A stretch of 64,000 nucleotides of DNA from Oscillospiraceae bacterium. Lineage in GTDB: Bacteria; Bacillota; Clostridia; UBA1212. Shown one piece after another: positions 4,161 to 54,191 of this stretch. Every line of letters begins with the position of its first letter. Within the stretch, counting starts at the first letter, position 1. Both the position numbers and the translations under genes were made by a program. The notes below the pieces were generated by a model, which made no database searches, was not told where the DNA came from, and saw only the letters and a list, made by a program, of their open reading frames with translations. Where the stretch lies: NCBI GenBank assembly GCA_015069195.1, contig SVJA01000004.1, forward strand, positions 10,978-74,977. The letters run 5' to 3'.

Positions 4161-4724
4161 ATGGTTAAAAAGATTTTTAAAATTTGTTCAACTGTACTGT
4201 TTGTTTTGCTGATGATAATAACCGTAACACTTGTTGTTATGAGATTTATGGGGGAAAGCTACAGTTTCCTTGGGTATAATGCATATTATGTCCTAACGGG
4301 AAGTATGGAGCCTGAGATTATGGCCGGAGATGTTATTTTTTCAAAATCAGTTGATGATATGTCCAAACTTAAAGTCGGCGATGTTATTACATATAACGGC
4401 AGAGTCGGAACGGTAAAGGATAAATCAATAACTCATAAAATTATAGAGATGCGTGAAGAAAACGGTGAACTTGTTTTTGTGACGCAGGGCGTTGCAAATC
4501 CGGCGGCAGACCCGCCGATAACATCGGATCAGATTGTTTCTAAGATGGTTTTTAAAAGCAGTCTTTTAGGAAATGTCGTTTCGGTTGTAAACAACAAGGT
4601 CGGATTTTTAATGATAATAATATTGCCGCTTGCGGTATTCCTTACGAGTGAGGTTGTTTCACTTGTAAGAACATATAAAGAATGTAAGGAGGAACAGGTA
4701 GATGAAGAAAATGCAGCAGCTTAA
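4161..4724 (+). CDS. sipW: Signal peptidase I, ER/archaeal type (S26B), SipW-like
   Basis: N-terminal TM segment followed by YVLTGSMEPEIMAGDVIF, the GSMEP catalytic-Ser box of ER-type SPases. A conserved His lies in GTVKDKSITHKIIE. C-terminal second TM segment. 187 aa. Confidence 0.85.
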   Translation: MVKKIFKICSTVLFVLLMIITVTLVVMRFMGESYSFLGYNAYYVLTGSMEPEIMAGDVIFSKSVDDMSKLKVGDVITYNGRVGTVKDKSITHKIIEMREENGELVFVTQGVANPAADPPITSDQIVSKMVFKSSLLGNVVSVVNNKVGFLMIIILPLAVFLTSEVVSLVRTYKECKEEQVDEENAAA

Positions 4725-7700: not shown

Positions 7701-10700
7701 TATTATTCGAAACAATGACAACGGTGAGGTTGTTTTGGTTACTTCGAATATTGATTATGTTTCAAATGGTAGCAGTGCTGATTTGATATCATTCCCTGAA
7801 GAGTACAATGGAAGTATAGTTACTGAAATTGGTAGAAATGCTTTTCGATATCAGACTTTTGATAATGTGAAAATTTCGTTCGGTAGTGGATTGAAAAAAA
7901 TAGGCGAGTATGCTTTTTATGAGAAGAGCGGTATCGAATATTTGGATTTTAGTCAAGCTGTAAATCTGAAGAATATCGGTGAATATGCATTTTGTAGAAA
8001 TGTCGGAATTGAGGGCGATTTAATTTTGCCCCAAAGTATGCATGAGATTGGTGCATATGCATTTTATAGCTGTTCCGAGATAAGTAATATAAATACAGGT
8101 GGAACTTCTTTTGTCAGAGAAAGTGCATTTGAGTTGTGTGGTAAAATTGTAAAGGCTGAATTGCCTGAAGTTTTGATATTAGGTGGAGCTACTAATGACA
8201 ATTCTGCCGTTTTCTTAAATTGTAGCTCATTGGTAGCTGTATATATGCCGAAATTATATTTGATTAATGGCTTTTACACTTTTCGATATTGTACAGCGTT
8301 ACGCGAACTTCATATGGCAAGTAGCAATGCGGAAATGAATTTTAATGGATATTCTTTTACTGATTGTGATAGTTCTAAAATTAAGATTTTTGTGCCGGAA
8401 GAATTAGTTGATTTCTACCGTGCAAAGGGACTTGCTGGTCTTCAAGATCGTAGTGTGTTTGAAGAGGGTGAGAAGCTAGGTGAAAATATTATTTTCGGAT
8501 ATAATATTGGTGAATATATTGTCAAAGAAAATCATGATGGAACGGCAACTCTTATAACTTCTCGTATTGATTTTTCTAGTGAGGTAGTACTTCCTAGTGT
8601 GTGGAATGATAACGGGGTAGAAAGAAAAATTACTGTTATCGGTGAGAGTGCATTCAAAAATGGTATATTTAATAATGCAACTCTTTCTATTGGTGAATAT
8701 GTGGAATTGATTGAAACAAATGCCTTTGATTCTGCTAATGGGCTTAAGGCGGTTAATTCTTGGGGCAATGCATTAACAACAATTGCAAATAATGCATTTT
8801 TTAATTGTGCAGATTTGACTGCAGATATTGTGTTGCCTGATTCATTGGATTACATAGGTGATTCTGCCTTTGCTTCAAGCGGTATAAAGAGTGTTGTTAC
8901 TGGTGGTGCTACTGCAGTTGGTTGGGACGTTTTTAAGAATTGTCAAAAACTTATATGGGCTGAGCTATCAAATGTGGTGATGATTGGAAAAGCTGGCCGT
9001 GATAATTGTTTATTTGAAGGTTCTGAAAATTTAGTATCTGTTAGAGCTCCGTTGTTATCCGTAGTTAAAGGTCAGTTTATTTTTATTGGCTGTGGCTCTT
9101 TGCGAGAATTGTATTTAGGCGCTTCCGACTTTGAGTCTTTAGGTGGTTATGCTTTTTACTTGTGCCAAACAGATAAGATAAAGATTTTTGTGCCTGCGGA
9201 GTTGTTGGATTTTTATAAAAGTAAGAATCCAGATGGACTAGGTGCTACTCATATTTATCCTATTGGTGAAAAAGTTGGTACAAATGAACTTAATGGTTAT
9301 AACCTTGGAAGATATATAGTTAAAGTTAATGAAGATGGTCAGACTGCTACACTTATAACATCGAATGTATCTTTTGAGGGCGATGTGACATTGCCTAATA
9401 CATTTACGAGTGACGGAAAAGAATTTCCTATTACTGCGATATTTAAAAATGCATTTATGAATGAGTCTTTTACAAATGTGAATCTTACTGTGGGTGCACA
9501 CGTTAAAGAAATCAGTGAGAATGCGTTCTATGGCAGAAAAGGTATTTTGAATGTAAATCTTAAAAATACAGAAACTGTTTGTGATTCTGCTTTCTATAAT
9601 TGCTCGGACATGACAAATCTTGTGGCAAATTATTTGAAAACGATAAAGGGAAACAATGCATTTAACGGATGTTTATCGCTTACAATATTGACTTTGCCCT
9701 CACTTGAAAATGTTACTGGATCGCAGAACTTTGCAAATAATACATCTATCAAGAAGGTTTATTTACAGAATATTGTATCGTTAGGTAATCAGACTTTCTA
9801 CGGTTGTTCAAATCTTGAAGAATTTGTAGTAAATAAAAAGCTTTCTTCTGCAAACGATATACCTACGGCGACAGATGCATTTTCAGGCGACGTTCGCACG
9901 GATCTTCCGATAAGAGTTCCTGCTGCTTCTATGAGTTACTATGGTGGTAGCTGGCAGGGCAGACCGGTGCTTGCTTACGGAGATACTATCGTCGTGGGGG
10001 ATGAGTCTTTTGTTGTTCTTCCTATGAATGGTGGATATATTATCCAATCATATATCGGTGGATCAGAATCCGTTGTGATTCCGGAGACTCTTGGGACGTT
10101 AAATGTTGTAGGTCTTGAAGAAAATGCTTTTGGAATAGTGACACAAACTATTACATCTGTTACTTTACCAAAGTATCTGTATTTCCTTGGTTTTGATGCT
10201 TTGTCGGAACTTTTGGGACTTAATGAGATTGCAGTAGATTCCGAGAATAGATTCTTCTCTTCTGTTGACGGTGTTCTTTATAGCAAAGACAAAAAAATGC
10301 TTGTAAGATATCCGCACGGAAAGACTGATGCATCGTTTACCGTTCCTGATATGGTCGTTGCAATTTCGGGTAATGCATTTAAAAATGCAAGAAATCTTAA
10401 CTCAATAATCCTTGGTAGCGGGTTAGGTGCTATAGACAGTGTTGCATTTATCGGATGTAATTATCTCGGACAGATCACATTCACCGGAGCTGTTCCACCC
10501 GTACTTATGGGAGCCTCGATATTTGATACGAACCTTACCGGATTTACAATGACTGTTCCGACTGGTAGTGTTGATGCATATATACGTGCAATGAATTTTG
10601 CAGAGTATGCACCGTATATGAACGGTGGAATTGAGATCCCGACAAGCGGTGATATGAATATGATTCATTGGGGCCCTGCGGTTGCACAGCAGACAAACGT

Positions 10701-27875: not shown

Positions 27876-28658
27876 ATGAATGTACTTGAAGTAAAAAATT
27901 TAACAAAAAGCTTCGGCGACCATCAGGTTATCAAAGGCGTATCGTTCACTCTCAAACAGGGCGAGGTACTGGTTCTGATAGGTTCATCCGGAAGCGGCAA
28001 AACGACTCTGTTGCGATGCCTCAATTTTCTTGAAACCCCTGACGGCGGCATCGTAAATGTCTTAGGCGAAGATGTATTCAATGCAGCACTTCATCGCAAA
28101 TTGACCGAAAAAATGCTTCGCGACCGAAGACTTCACTTCGGACTTGTTTTCCAGTCGTTTAATTTATTTCCGCAACACAATGTCCTTAAAAATGTAACTC
28201 TGGCACCGCTCCTTCGCCTCAAAGAAAAGAAACTTCCAAAGGCTGAAATGAAGAAGGCGCAAGAGGAAATAATCGAGAACGGCAAGCAGTTGATTTCAAT
28301 GGTGGGGTTGTCCGATAAACTTGACGCATATCCTTGCACATTATCGGGTGGTCAACAGCAACGTGTAGCAATTGCACGTGCCCTAGCTCTCAACCCGGAT
28401 ATACTGTGTTTTGACGAACCGACATCTGCGCTTGATCCGGAGCTTACCGGAGAGGTATTGCGAGTTATCCGTTCCCTTAAAGACCAAGGAAGAACAATGA
28501 TTGTCGTTACTCACGAGATGGAATTTGCAAAGAATGTTGCAGATCATGTGATTTATATGGCGGATGGCGTGATAGAAGAAGAGGGTACACCTGCTGATGT
28601 GTTTGATAATCCGCAGTCCGAAAGAACGAAAGCTTTTTTGGCAGCAGGAAAGAAGTAA
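27876..28658 (+). CDS. Amino-acid ABC transporter ATP-binding protein (GlnQ-like)
   Basis: [33 protein letters not shown]. Confidence 0.9.
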
Positions 28659-28660
28659 AG

Positions 28661-28737
28661 AAAATTCTACAGGGGCTATGTAAAATTATGGTTTACGTTC
28701 CGTAAAAAAAATTTTACATAGCCCCTGTAGAATTTTT
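28661..28737. terminator. Long perfect hairpin (~27-bp arms) directly after the ABC ATPase gene; probable bidirectional terminator and first part of the composite element
   Basis: GAAAATTCTACAGGGGCTATGTAAAATT - loop ATGGTTTACGTTCCGTAAAAA - AATTTTACATAGCCCCTGTAGAATTTTTTC. Confidence 0.7.
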
Positions 28738-28770
28738 TCGAATGTTTTGTCGGTGCAGAGTTTTCAGCTA

Positions 28771-28799
28771 TTGACACGATTTTTTGAGTAAGTTAATAT
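28771..28799 (+). promoter_or_regulatory. Sigma-A promoter TTGACA-17-TAATAT driving the small RNA (copy A)
   Basis: TTGACA at 28771-28776, 17-nt spacer, TAATAT at 28794-28799. The conserved RNA body starts 8 nt later. Confidence 0.6.
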
Positions 28800-28805
28800 A
28801 CTAAA

Positions 28806-28902
28806 AAGGGCATTGCCTGAAACGGTTATGCTCCTTGGAAGATTATTTTAGGGAATGGCTGCGTTCGTTGGTAAAATTATAGAGCGCAGTCATTTTTGTT
28901 GG
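28806..28902 (+). ncRNA. Candidate ~95-nt small RNA (copy A); putative type I antitoxin convergently overlapping a BsrG-like toxin gene
   Basis: Bounded by a consensus promoter and a 3' hairpin GCTGCG...CGCAGT plus U-run (CATTTTTGTT). About 80% identical to a second promoter-plus-terminator unit at 52726-52824. Contains the anti-SD-like UGCUCCUUGG. Confidence 0.55.
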
Positions 28903-28973
28903 CTTTTATAAAAAATTATAAAGATAAGTTCTAATATGTTAAGTGTGATCATTAGAGTTTCGTATGTGCTCAT
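28890..28973 (-). CDS. 27-aa hydrophobic peptide MSTYETLMITLNILELIFIIFYKSQQK; candidate type I toxin (BsrG-like)
   Basis: ATG preceded by GGAGGTGA with 8-nt spacing. Single TM helix plus a polar SQQK tail. Its 3' end overlaps the plus-strand RNA 3' end by 13 nt. Resembles B. subtilis BsrG (MTVYESLMIMINF...SSQKKK, recalled from memory). Confidence 0.5.
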   Translation of the reverse strand: MSTYETLMITLNILELIFIIFYKSQQK

Positions 28974-29176
28974 GCCAATCACCTCCTCTACGTCGGTGTG
29001 GACTTCATGACATTCGTTATGGCACAAAACCATCACTCACTCATTTCGTCACGCTTTCTTTTCGCAAAAAGTCACGCTCTGCAAACCTGTTCAGTTGTAA
29101 ACGCCTTCACAACGGTTTGCTGTCGCTACCAACTTTTTACGACTGAAAGGAGTAACCCAACCGACAAATATTCTAA

Positions 29177-29258
29177 CCCCAAACAGAACGCTGAAGGAAT
29201 ATTCTTTTTACGGACAAAGGACGTAAAAAGAATATTCCTTCAGCGTTCTGTTTGGGGG
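29177..29258. repeat. Perfect palindrome with 34-bp arms and 13-nt loop, abutting the pckA -35
   Basis: CCCCAAACAGAACGCTGAAGGAATATTCTTTTTA - CGGACAAAGGACG - exact reverse complement. The apex reads TTTACG..CGTAAA, as in two other long hairpins. Confidence 0.65.
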
Positions 29259-29287
29259 TTGACAACCAACCCAAAAAAACATAAAAT
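29259..29287 (+). promoter_or_regulatory. pckA promoter TTGACA-17-TAAAAT
   Basis: TTGACA at 29259-29264, 17-nt spacer ACCAACCCAAAAAAACA, TAAAAT at 29282-29287. Confidence 0.6.
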
Positions 29288-29366
29288 CAATTAATATGTA
29301 TTTTTATACATATTATAAAATGGGTAATGATATGTATTTATTGCAGAATCTTAGGAGGATTTATAT

Positions 29367-31037
29367 ATGGCTACTAAAGCTTACTTTAAAACAGAAGAGA
29401 TCGGAAAGGGCAAAGTTGGTTTTGCAAAGACCCGTTCTATCATCGAAGCAGCTTTTTACGGAAATAATGTTGAGAAAGTAACTTCTCTTGCACAGGCTTA
29501 CGAGCTTGCTAAAAATTCACCCGGAACTATCGTAACTGATATGCCGGTATACAAAGGAGAGACTTTTGGCCTTCCGGCTGATGCTAAAGTACTTTTGTTC
29601 AACGACGGTTCTATCACAGGTCGATATGCCGCTGCGAGAAGAATTGCAGGTGAGCCCGGCGTTGATTGCGAGTCTCTTGACAAACTCGTTATGGATGCTG
29701 TTTATGACACAAGATGGAAAAAGATGTATCATGCAGAAGTTTTCATCGGCCTTGATCCGGAGTTTATGGTTAAGGCACACCTTCTTATTCCTCAGGGCGA
29801 GGAGAACATTATGTACTCTTGGATGCTCAACTTCCAGTATATGAGCGAGCAGTACATTGAGATGTACAAGAATTCAAAGGTTTATGACAACGAGGCTGAC
29901 ATTTACATATTCTCAGATCCTCAGTGGAAGGGTTCTGACAGAACTGATATCTGCGACGGAAAGTGCCTCTCATATTTCAACACTGCTACAAACTGTGCAG
30001 CTATTTTGGGTATGAAGTATTTCGGTGAGCATAAGAAGGGTACTCTTACAATCGGTTGGGCTATCGCTAACAGAAACGGTTATGCATCATGCCACGGCGG
30101 TCAGAAAGAGTATTTGCTTGCTGACGGCAAGAAATATGTTGCATCTGTATTTGGACTTTCAGGTTCAGGTAAGTCTACTATCACACATGCTAAGCACGGT
30201 GGTAAGTACGGCGTAACTGTATTGCACGATGATGCTTTCATTATCAATACTGAGACATGTTCTTCTGTTGCTATGGAGCCTACATATTTTGATAAGACTG
30301 CTGACTATCCGACAGGTTGCGAGGATAACAAATATTTGCTTACAGCACAGAACTGCTCCGCTACTTTGGATGCAGACGGAAAAGTTGTTCTTGTAACAGA
30401 GGACATCAGAAACGGTAACGGCCGTGCGATTAAGTCAAAGCTTTGGTCACCTAACCGTGTTGATAAAATCGATGCACCGGTTAATGCGATTTTCTGGATT
30501 ATGAAAGATCCTACAATTCCTCCGGTTGTTAAACTCAAAGGTGCTTCACTTGCATCAGTTATGGGTGCTACACTTGCTACAAAGCGTTCAACTGCCGAAA
30601 GACTTGCTCCCGGCGTTGACCCGAATGCACTCGTTGTTGAGCCTTACGCTAACCCGTTCAGAACTTATCCGCTCGTAAATGACTACGAGAAGTTCAAAAA
30701 GCTTGTTGGTGACAAGAATGTTGATTGCTATATCATCAACACAGGCGACTTTATGGGTAAGAAAGTTCAGCCTAAGGATACTCTCGGAGTTATCGAAGCT
30801 ATCGTAGAAGGCAAAGCAGACTTCAAACCTTGGGGACCGTTTGAGGATATCGAAATCTTTGAGTGGGAAGGATTCGTTCCGGATCTTAACGATGCAGAGT
30901 ATGTAAAACAGCTCAAAGCTCGTATGCACGACAGACTCGAGTTTGTTCAATCCAGAGACGATGTAAAGGGTGGCTTTGATAAGCTTCCTGCTGACGCTGT
31001 TGCAGCACTTGCAAAAGTTATTGCAGAGCTTGGCTGA
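29367..31037 (+). CDS. pckA: Phosphoenolpyruvate carboxykinase (ATP)
   Basis: Kinase-1a region VFGLSGSGKSTIT; PEPCK-ATP family length and architecture. Confidence 0.88.
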   Translation: MATKAYFKTEEIGKGKVGFAKTRSIIEAAFYGNNVEKVTSLAQAYELAKNSPGTIVTDMPVYKGETFGLPADAKVLLFNDGSITGRYAAARRIAGEPGVDCESLDKLVMDAVYDTRWKKMYHAEVFIGLDPEFMVKAHLLIPQGEENIMYSWMLNFQYMSEQYIEMYKNSKVYDNEADIYIFSDPQWKGSDRTDICDGKCLSYFNTATNCAAILGMKYFGEHKKGTLTIGWAIANRNGYASCHGGQKEYLLADGKKYVASVFGLSGSGKSTITHAKHGGKYGVTVLHDDAFIINTETCSSVAMEPTYFDKTADYPTGCEDNKYLLTAQNCSATLDADGKVVLVTEDIRNGNGRAIKSKLWSPNRVDKIDAPVNAIFWIMKDPTIPPVVKLKGASLASVMGATLATKRSTAERLAPGVDPNALVVEPYANPFRTYPLVNDYEKFKKLVGDKNVDCYIINTGDFMGKKVQPKDTLGVIEAIVEGKADFKPWGPFEDIEIFEWEGFVPDLNDAEYVKQLKARMHDRLEFVQSRDDVKGGFDKLPADAVAALAKVIAELG

Positions 31038-52689: not shown

Positions 52690-52718
52690 TTGACAGCAAA
52701 ATAACATCAAAGTTATAT
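52690..52718 (+). promoter_or_regulatory. Promoter TTGACA-17-TTATAT of RNA copy B
   Basis: Same geometry as copy A. The conserved GGGCAT RNA start lies 9 nt downstream. Confidence 0.5.
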
Positions 52719-52725
52719 ATTTATA

Positions 52726-52824
52726 ATGGGCATGGTCTGAAAGGTTATGCTCCTTGGGTATTTTTTATTTGGGAATGGCTGCGTCTCTTATCTGAGTTGG
52801 AGGGCGCAGTCGTTTTGTTTGATT
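52726..52824 (+). ncRNA. Candidate small RNA, copy B (orphan antitoxin-like)
   Basis: GGGCATGGTCTGAAAGGTTATGCTCCTTGG...GGGAATGGCTGCGTC...GGGCGCAGTCGTTTTGTTTGATTT; about 80% identity to copy A, including the terminator. No intact toxin ORF on the opposite strand. Confidence 0.5.
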
Positions 52825-53054
52825 TATGTAAAGGCTGACTCGCAAGAAAATAATGCCATAAGCGTTTCTGTTTGTAAATGATGTCAAATATTTCCCGAGA
52901 AATATTCCGAAAGCAGTATATAAGATTAAACATAAATATACACTTGAATAACAGGCACATTTAGTATAAAATAACAAAAGTAATACATTATGTAGTTTTT
53001 TTTTACAGTAAGATAAGGGTTAGTTATAACATAAGTTACGAAGGAAAGAGTAAA

Positions 53055-54191
53055 ATGGGTAGTATTGATTTTTTGATATGTGCAGATATGCACCTTGATT
53101 CCACGTTTGCGCTTGATAATGATTTGCGCAGAGAAGAACAAAAATTCACTTTTGAAAAAATTATAGATACTGTTTATGAAAACGGCGCGGAACTTTTATT
53201 GATTCCGGGCGACCTTTTTGATGTCAGAAATCCTGCACAGGAGACAGTAGATTTTGTAATTCGTCAGTTTAAAAGAATTCCCGACACAGATATATTGATC
53301 GCTCCGGGTAATCATGATCCGTATACGACCGACTCACCGTATTTTTATGCGGAATGGCCGGAGAATGTTTATATATTCAAAGCGGACAAGATGCGTTGCT
53401 TTGAAATATCTCTTCGTGATACCTGTGAGAAAAAGCTTCGTATATACGGAATAGGAAATGCGGGACATTTCACGAGAAAGACATTGCTTCGTGATGCGAA
53501 TGATACACTTCCTGTTCTTGATCATGACTATACAAATATATTGCTTATGCACGGCGATGCAGAAGTTTCAAAGTCTGTTTATAACCCCATTCATACACAG
53601 GACTTGAAGGAATGTGAGTTTGATTTGTGTGCTCTCGGTCACAGACACCGCTTTGAAAAGTCACCCTTTTATGTTTATTCAGGGGTACCTTACCCAAGAG
53701 GATTTGACGAGTGGGGCGACTGCGGCGTTGTTGAAGGTACTATAAGTGACGGCGGAACCATTATCAGTTGGTTCGAATCTATAGAGGGAAGACGCTACAT
53801 TGATACTGAAATAAATATAGAAGAACTTGATGATTGTACTCCCGAGGATATTTGCATCGAGATACTTAAAAAGATAACTCCCGGAAAAAATTTTTATAAA
53901 GTCAGAATAGAGGGCAGAATCGCAGAGGGCAAAAAAATAAATTGCAGTGCGATAGAGATGCGACTTGAAAAGGATTTTCCCGGAATAAAAATAGAGGATA
54001 ATACTTCGCCGATGACTGATTACAATCTTATTTCAAGAGAAAATTCACTCAGAGGAATTTTCATAAGAAAATTGCTTTCAATGCAGCGCGGAGCGAGCAT
54101 GGAAAAAGTTGTAGACAAGCAGGCTGTTGCAGATGCGATGAACCTCGGTATGAAAGCTTTTGACGGAACGCTTACGGCGTCGGATGACTAA
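53055..54191 (+). CDS. SbcD-like DNA repair exonuclease (YhaO-type metallophosphoesterase)
   Basis: ICADMHLD, PGDLFD, GNHDP motifs. Confidence 0.8.
   Translation: MGSIDFLICADMHLDSTFALDNDLRREEQKFTFEKIIDTVYENGAELLLIPGDLFDVRNPAQETVDFVIRQFKRIPDTDILIAPGNHDPYTTDSPYFYAEWPENVYIFKADKMRCFEISLRDTCEKKLRIYGIGNAGHFTRKTLLRDANDTLPVLDHDYTNILLMHGDAEVSKSVYNPIHTQDLKECEFDLCALGHRHRFEKSPFYVYSGVPYPRGFDEWGDCGVVEGTISDGGTIISWFESIEGRRYIDTEINIEELDDCTPEDICIEILKKITPGKNFYKVRIEGRIAEGKKINCSAIEMRLEKDFPGIKIEDNTSPMTDYNLISRENSLRGIFIRKLLSMQRGASMEKVVDKQAVADAMNLGMKAFDGTLTASDD

Follow-up and report, generated by a model that had tools for sequence, protein, structure and literature searches.

A candidate type I toxin-antitoxin cassette of the BsrG/TxpA superfamily with a probably silent or weakly expressed toxin arm in an uncultured Clostridia bacterium

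BsrG and TxpA, the closest characterised relatives of the peptide described here, lyse cells once their antitoxin is removed (PMC6562991). For bsrG mRNA, structure probing has shown that nucleotides (nt) 1-35 pair with nt 232-262 in a helix called P1, and that the antitoxin RNA SR4 binds the 3' half of P1 (PMC3834814). The freed 5' part lengthens the helix at the Shine-Dalgarno (SD) motif, taking it from 4 to 8 base pairs, and RNase III cleaves the duplex (PMC3834814; PMC6562991). TxpA-like toxins are already known in Clostridiales, an Enterococcus homologue has an antisense RNA of ~110 nt, and chromosomal copies of hok loci are frequently inactivated (PMC2887945). The locus analysed here lies in a 64,000-nt stretch of contig SVJA01000004.1 of an Oscillospiraceae bacterium, called the window as a whole, and consists of a gene for a 27-residue membrane peptide convergent with the gene for an antisense small RNA (sRNA) of ~100 nt. 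With a probability of roughly 60%, it represents a type I toxin-antitoxin cassette on the chromosome, belongs to the BsrG/TxpA (Pfam Hol_Tox) superfamily and has a toxin arm that is silent or weakly expressed. An earlier sequence-only reading had proposed a module of this kind, and every element that it described was found where it had been placed. Unnoticed in that reading was that the toxin promoter and 5' leader are missing from this copy.

The sRNA gene is preceded on the plus strand by a consensus promoter, TTGACA-17-TAATAT, at a distance of 93 nt from the toxin stop codon. Four related cassettes have TTGACA-17-TAATAT or TAGTAT at the homologous position. The start and end of the sRNA transcript are inferred. 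Its terminator has core stems at 28856-28866 and 28882-28892, followed by TTTTTGTTGG, and the fold of the sRNA reached -37.4 kcal/mol (z = -4.36), with 0 of 200 shuffled sequences as stable, in agreement with the hairpin and U-tract terminator described earlier. A covariance model, R2, was built from five homologous sRNA copies, the window sequence among the five, and scored the window sRNA (28797-28908) at 108.8 bits. The earlier claim of a conserved body of ~95 nt was thereby upheld, and a second copy was located at 52717-52828. All 27 of the 27 predicted pairs were conserved in the five copies, and the loops and the linker were variable. Promoter score, fold and conservation in five copies together describe, in silico, an antisense RNA gene with its own promoter and terminator that overlaps the toxin open reading frame (ORF). 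Rfam, scanned with the window and with 28600-29400, had no family for the sRNA or the toxin mRNA on either strand. Two candidate pairings of the sRNA were rejected: that of its 5' part with the toxin translation start did not exceed the pairing of shuffles or of non-cognate pairs, in the window or in the Lachnospiraceae family described below, and that with the pckA leader gave p 0.38.

The minus-strand ORF encodes a small hydrophobic peptide and has its own ribosome-binding site, with start codon and spacing as read from the letters earlier. The hydrophobic core scored 2.26, a lysine stands at the C-terminal end, and the hydropathy of the peptide is within the family range. In predicted folds the SD sequence had an unpaired probability of 0.4-0.5. 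Read on the toxin strand, the TGA at 28892-28890 is formed by the first three bases of the sRNA-terminator stem. If the U-tract is where the sRNA ends, the two 3' ends overlap by at least 13 nt, as proposed. What follows the stop-codon hairpin on the toxin strand is UUCCCUAAAA, not a U-tract, and what follows the next hairpin is UUUUUAGUAUAUU. A possible terminator of the toxin mRNA combines the complement of the sRNA 5' hairpin (28836-28808) with the U run at 28807-28803; a toxin transcript would probably run on to this hairpin complement and its UUUUU, which would give an overlap of ~100 nt. A promoter-like sequence, TTAACA-16-TATAAT (11/12), was observed inside the ORF at 28942-28915 of the minus strand. 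A transcript from this site would be antisense to the sRNA; in AT-rich coding sequence such as this, the match has probably arisen by chance. Database searches with the peptide gave little. NCBIfam gave no match, a word-indexed protein search gave no real match for a 48-residue ORF extended to a GTG, and a search of 1.84 billion protein representatives returned matches solely to the spurious N-terminal extension. No match to the peptide was found in phages by tblastn, and when compared by blastn with phages and plasmids the module had chance matches only.

Taken singly, these elements are not significant, so it is the comparison with other sequences that carries the case. True homologues were found in sister Clostridia. 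Locus L061, whose PckA is 97% identical, carries two tandem cassettes at the same site between the genes for the ABC-transporter ATPase and pckA. By blastn, window positions 28760-28992, a block that runs from the RNA promoter through the toxin ribosome-binding site, were 74.5% and 72.7% identical to these cassettes over ~235 nt (E 3e-35 and 4e-28). Identity between window and L061 was 94% in the sRNA 5' hairpin, 82-94% in the terminator stems, 27-60% in the terminator loop and 70-75% in the linker; it was 61% in the ORF outside the overlap, 79% in the SD block (28974-28992) and 33-37% beyond the SD. A profile search seeded with both peptides added two more copies near tsaD (L064/L065) and the more distant L066-L073, on ruminant-type metagenome contigs. 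Among the copies, the sRNA stems are 82-100% identical and the 5' hairpin 94-100%. The cassette is beyond chance, since the combination of elements recurs as a homologous unit in other genomes, and the convergent module of the sequence-only reading thus appears as a conserved cassette, in support of its type I toxin-antitoxin reading.

The L061 and L064 cassettes have the same sRNA as the window, and in all homologues the stop codon lies in the stem. They differ from the window copy in being complete, in occurring as tandem pairs and in encoding 28-residue MSDYEIL... peptides, that of L061 being 56% identical to the window peptide. Nucleotide homology over sRNA, ORF and SD, together with the R2 match, places the window copy with this MSDYEIL type. 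Compared with its L061 homologue, the window ORF has a proportion of non-synonymous differences (pN) of 0.26 and of synonymous differences (pS) of 0.72 (pN/pS 0.36), an in-frame indel of 3 nt, and start and stop codons at homologous positions. Between the two L061 ORF copies there are two synonymous changes and no non-synonymous ones. Coding constraint on the ORF is supported by these sequences. A sister lineage with a 91% identical PckA has the same ABC-transporter/pckA synteny with an intergenic region of 316 nt and no cassette; presence of the cassette is, among the genomes compared, lineage-specific.

The tandem pairs (L061 1640-2310, L064 1040-1700) are spaced ~420-430 nt apart. In the second L064 copy the A-run ahead of the stop codon is longer by one A, which takes the ORF from 28 to 44 residues and could be a frameshift or an assembly error. 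Between the L061 cassettes and pckA, at 2480-2900, overlapping ORFs with repeated peptide motifs (SAVKITFSPHPAVFSELIAV...) were observed, which suggests tandem DNA repeats.

Table 1. Coordinates of the cassette, its flanking hairpins and the second copy in the window.
Feature	Position	Strand	Description
Long perfect hairpin	28661..28736	.	3' of the ABC-transporter ATPase gene; bounds the region on the left; 27-nt arms, 100% complementary
sRNA promoter, TTGACA-17-TAATAT	28771..28799	+	TTGACA 28771-28776, 17-nt spacer, TAATAT 28794-28799; score 10/12
Putative antitoxin sRNA, ~100 nt	~28806..28908	+	5' hairpin 28806-28836, linker, terminator hairpin 28856-28892, U-tract from 28893
Inferred toxin mRNA 3' untranslated region	28800..28889	-	fully complementary to the sRNA
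Toxin-type ORF	28890..28973	-	27 residues, MSTYETLMITLNILELIFIIFYKSQQK, and TGA stop; ATG at 28973, TGA 28892-28890
Shine-Dalgarno sequence GGAGG	28986..28982	-	8 nt 5' of the ATG; read directly from the sequence
Sequence 5' of the toxin SD	28993..29171	-	unrelated to the toxin promoter and 5' leader of the family
Long hairpin	29172..29262	.	41-nt arms; abuts the pckA promoter; right boundary of the region; marginal match to the L061 pckA upstream region
Second cassette copy, toxin-deleted	52691..52902	+	sRNA gene (R2 match 52717-52828) joined to a toxin-promoter relic, 52842-52902 (minus strand)

In the complete cassettes a toxin promoter, TTTACA or TTGTCA followed after 17 nt by TGgCATTAT, lies ~100 nt before the ATG. 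The ~100-nt leader contains GGGCATTGC...TTATCCTCCTTGGGAG and closely resembles the sRNA 5' hairpin. Because it mimics this hairpin, the leader is complementary to the 3' untranslated region (UTR) of the toxin strand; in L061 and L064 this pairing was worth -43 to -51 kcal/mol, compared with -21 to -28 kcal/mol for shuffles (p < 0.005). In the window, no sigma-A-like promoter scoring above 7/12 was found upstream of the toxin SD. Local alignment of the window upstream sequence with the L061 leader was not significant (p 0.14), and complementarity between the 5' UTR and 3' UTR of the window amounted to -24.4 kcal/mol (p 0.59), so that a P1 helix was not detected. Homology to the complete cassettes ends at most ~20 nt upstream of the ribosome-binding site (from ~28993), and the ~180 nt of upstream sequence had no homologue in any fetched locus. 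A remnant of the toxin promoter, suggested in a MAFFT alignment by a TTTACA in register and a mutated -10 box, is not claimed in view of the p of 0.14 in local alignment. The sRNA gene, ribosome-binding site and ORF of the window copy are intact in sequence. The missing promoter and leader, and the end of homology just upstream of the ribosome-binding site, make it probable that the toxin arm is silent or only weakly expressed.

A second copy of the cassette in the window lies between a HAD-like hydrolase gene (minus strand, end ~52682) and a metallophosphoesterase-like gene starting at 53055. R2 scored it at 80.3 bits (E 4.7e-14). Positions 52710-52854 are 78% identical to the sRNA part of L061 and positions 52842-52902 are 84% identical to its toxin promoter part. 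About 150 nt comprising the ORF, SD and leader are missing, and the position of the stop codon reads CGA. This copy has lost its ORF and kept its sRNA gene; cassettes of this family therefore decay in the window genome while retaining the sRNA gene. The sRNA retained in the window cassette may still neutralise paralogous toxin mRNAs, since the 5' hairpin is nearly invariant among the copies.

The peptide had earlier been likened to BsrG. The BsrG sequence used for that likeness proved exact (100% match in SPbeta), and the likeness is supported at the superfamily level. With a query alignment of the closest relatives, of the L061/L064 type and with the window peptide excluded, hhalign against Hol_Tox members including BsrG gave a probability of 96.9% (E 1.8e-10). 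A single pairwise BLASTP comparison of the window peptide with BsrG gave 11 of 25 identical residues (E 7e-5). The E-value of 4e-8 obtained with a family profile is partly circular, as the family was found by the N-terminal pattern of the peptide, and it was not relied on. Window peptide and BsrG share the N-terminus M-[ST]-x-Y-E-[ST]-L-M-I, Asn 12 and a Q/K tail, whereas BsrG has 38 residues compared with 27. The bsrG/SR4-type geometry proposed earlier was recovered as well. As in bsrG/SR4 (PF16935; RF01412), the stop codon lies in a hairpin complementary to the antitoxin terminator and the RNAs are complementary at their 3' ends; the long 5'-3' helix, with the antitoxin on its 3' half, is shared by the complete relatives only. 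SR4 is longer than the window sRNA, at 183 nt with four stem-loops compared with ~100 nt, and bsrG/SR4 resides in the B. subtilis prophage SPbeta, whereas the window cassette occupies a non-prophage site in an uncultured Clostridia bacterium and lacks the P1 5' arm and a detectable toxin promoter. The hok/sok system is more different: its peptide and RNAs are unrelated, and pairing by Sok is at the 5' end instead of the 3' end. The hok mRNA of plasmid R1 folds back 5' to 3', as is predicted for the toxin mRNA of the complete cassettes. On the metagenome contig L053, matches to RF01412 were observed at 7913-8165 and 4384-4663. One of these encodes the 27-residue BsrG-like peptide MTVYESLMIAINFASLIVVILAFRQQK, which passes the Hol_Tox threshold with 24.3 bits and has a QQK tail resembling that of the window peptide.

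Further relatives were found by scanning public collections with degenerate DNA patterns for M-[ST]-x-Y-E-[ST]-[LF]-M-I. Peptides of 27 residues (for example MSTYETLMIILTTASLIVAILRYTNKK) were found in viral contigs and in Blautia, Fusicatenibacter, Eisenbergiella and other Lachnospiraceae (loci L005-L049). Two of the Lachnospiraceae peptide types pass the Hol_Tox cutoff, and one carries the NCBI label "putative holin-like toxin". A convergent TTGACA-17-TATAAT promoter (11-12/12) lies 98-106 nt from the stop codon in ~28 of 33 loci, and the cassettes are situated in prophage lysogeny modules, beside integrase, ImmA and XRE genes. Like the window cassette, they have a 27-residue peptide (the first nine residues of the window peptide are those of the L006 type, with 14 of 27 identical overall), a GGAGG ribosome-binding site and an sRNA terminator that overlaps the stop codon. 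In contrast, only the SD and the first codons resemble the window at the DNA level, and R1, the Lachnospiraceae sRNA model, scored the window sRNA at 10.9 bits (E 2.8), below unrelated terminators of the window. Their terminator is bidirectional, whereas that of the window has a U-tract on the sRNA side only, and they are prophage-borne, whereas the window copy lies between housekeeping genes. The Lachnospiraceae cassettes are, on these comparisons, relatives in design and in the N-terminal motif, and not close homologues.

Pairing of the leader with the 3' UTR was also seen in the Lachnospiraceae cassettes, at -42 to -55 kcal/mol, with different sequences. In L005, L007, L017, L032, L033 and L042 the 5' leader of the toxin and the 5' part of the sRNA are near-identical and form an inverted repeat flanking the ORF. 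As the two are near-copies, the leader is strongly complementary to the 3' region of the toxin strand. The pairing had z values of -4 to -6, G-U pairs favour the toxin strand, and the arrangement resembles bsrG P1, with unrelated RNA sequences. In 11 of 14 cassettes, stability was greater on the toxin strand than on the opposite one. In two Lachnospiraceae cassette copies, L051 (~3237, minus strand) and L040, the ORF ends after 18 codons, another form of disarmed toxin; L051 has an insertion of ~75 nt within the ORF, with the remaining ORF and the convergent promoter downstream of it. In metagenome-assembled genomes of Spirochaetales (L043, L045), outside the Firmicutes, a 22-residue variant, MSDYETLMIVIAIITLVVSVIR, was observed with a strong GGAGG; the convergent promoter was weak or absent in the scan.

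From sequence comparison, a strong promoter would drive the ~100-nt sRNA convergent to a gene for a membrane peptide of 27-28 codons. The sRNA terminator and the stop-codon hairpin of the toxin mRNA are complementary, as are the sRNA 5' hairpin and the toxin 3' UTR, with which the toxin 5' leader also pairs in complete relatives. If the bsrG/SR4 experiments are a guide, the sRNA would bind the 3' part of the toxin mRNA and displace the 5' leader, the CCUCC of the freed leader could then close the ribosome-binding site, and the sRNA:mRNA duplex would be a substrate for RNase III.

Several results weigh against the assignment to the BsrG/TxpA superfamily with a silent toxin arm. The window peptide reached 14.3 bits with Pfam Hol_Tox PF16935 (E 0.038, residues 1-17), below the gathering threshold of 23.3, compared with 34.5 bits for BsrG, 29.5 for the L006 type and 30.9 for the L007 type. 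The L061- and L064-type peptides alone gave no Hol_Tox match. When BsrG was compared with all 2333 stop-to-stop ORFs of at least 15 residues in the window, the candidate was the top match, at a non-significant E of 0.05-0.5. The peptide signal is confined to the first 9-12 residues, and a profile of residues 10-27 misses the window ORF. The Rfam model of BsrG mRNA, RF01412, gave no match at E up to 10 in 28600-29400, whereas it does detect L008 (169 bits) and L053 (84 and 59 bits). No compensatory changes were found in the sRNA stems among the five copies, and the structure is thus supported by the pattern of conservation and not by covariation; this conservation could stem partly from the overlapping ORF and from the recent common origin of the copies. 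With regard to the toxin arm, an intact ORF and a good ribosome-binding site are not predicted by long-term silence. The toxin promoters of the related families are themselves weak, at 7-10/12, and the lack of a visible promoter in the window is therefore not proof of silence.

The last two points also speak for a fully active cassette, with an unrecognised promoter in the novel 180-nt upstream segment (a solitary TAGAAT at 29175-29170, for example, or a site used by a different sigma factor) and with control by the sRNA through the 3' overlap only. The low pN/pS of the ORF and its strong GGAGG fit such a cassette, as do a start codon that is mostly paired in predicted folds (unpaired probability 0.05-0.18) and an upstream segment that is moderately structured (z -2.0). 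However, the best promoter-like match there is 7/12, the leader arm that pairs with the 3' UTR is absent although it is present in all complete relatives tested, the homology breaks at the SD, and the second copy in the genome is clearly degenerate. Full activity is regarded as less likely, though as a serious rival. The peptide could instead be a regulatory small membrane protein and not a toxin, as ComI is among BsrE/H-like peptides, with its level tuned by the antisense RNA. Related peptides match NCBIfam ComI weakly, and some family members are toxic solely when overexpressed (PMC6562991). This reading is quite improbable in view of the lysis caused by BsrG and TxpA without their antitoxin (PMC6562991), the location of the Lachnospiraceae relatives in prophage lysogeny modules, as is usual for addiction modules, and the deletion in the second copy, which fits selection against a harmful ORF. 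A chance arrangement of an AT-rich open frame beside an unrelated terminator and a promoter-like site would draw on the abundance of such sites (10 per 3 kb compared with 5.7 expected) and of short ORFs, among which one of 27 codons is unremarkable, but it is effectively refuted by the conservation of the whole unit as a block in other genomes, in a pattern that fits an sRNA and an ORF.

The cassette lies among genes for an amino-acid ABC transporter, pckA and sbcCD, and no integrase or phage gene was found within 3 kb, so that a prophage or mobile-element location was not indicated. Near-perfect, very long hairpins with arms of 18-41 nt are frequent between genes of the window, at 29172-29262 and 11 other sites. 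As such hairpins are common (12 in 64 kb), the one at 28661..28736 is probably a terminator and not a part of the cassette. The hairpin at 29172-29262 and the -35 box of the pckA promoter overlap. Rfam microRNA models gave hits below threshold on the flanking hairpins, the 29172-29262 hairpin included, which were judged spurious; no other Rfam matches were found there.

The window genome has retained two sRNA genes, the first next to a toxin ORF that lacks a promoter and the second where the ORF is deleted. It is unlikely, though conceivable, that these provide "anti-addiction" immunity and that the bsrG-type P1 switch is conserved across Clostridial Hol_Tox cassettes that share no RNA sequence. 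The near-invariant 5' hairpin would then pair with the 3' UTR of incoming or paralogous cassettes and silence their toxin, and the antitoxin would mimic the toxin leader in the P1 switch. If true, disarmed type I cassettes would defend, by means of RNA, against related mobile cassettes.

This locus does not alter what is currently understood of type I systems. For annotation, it would add a divergent BsrG/TxpA-type cassette from a lineage of uncultured Clostridia, probably of the ruminant gut, that is missed by gene callers and by Pfam, NCBIfam and Rfam models. Its relatives show several stages side by side: complete tandem pairs, a copy without the toxin control region and a copy without the ORF. 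The comparison suggests that the 5'-3' helix and the antitoxin-mimic logic of bsrG/SR4 are widespread in Clostridial cassettes with unrelated RNAs.

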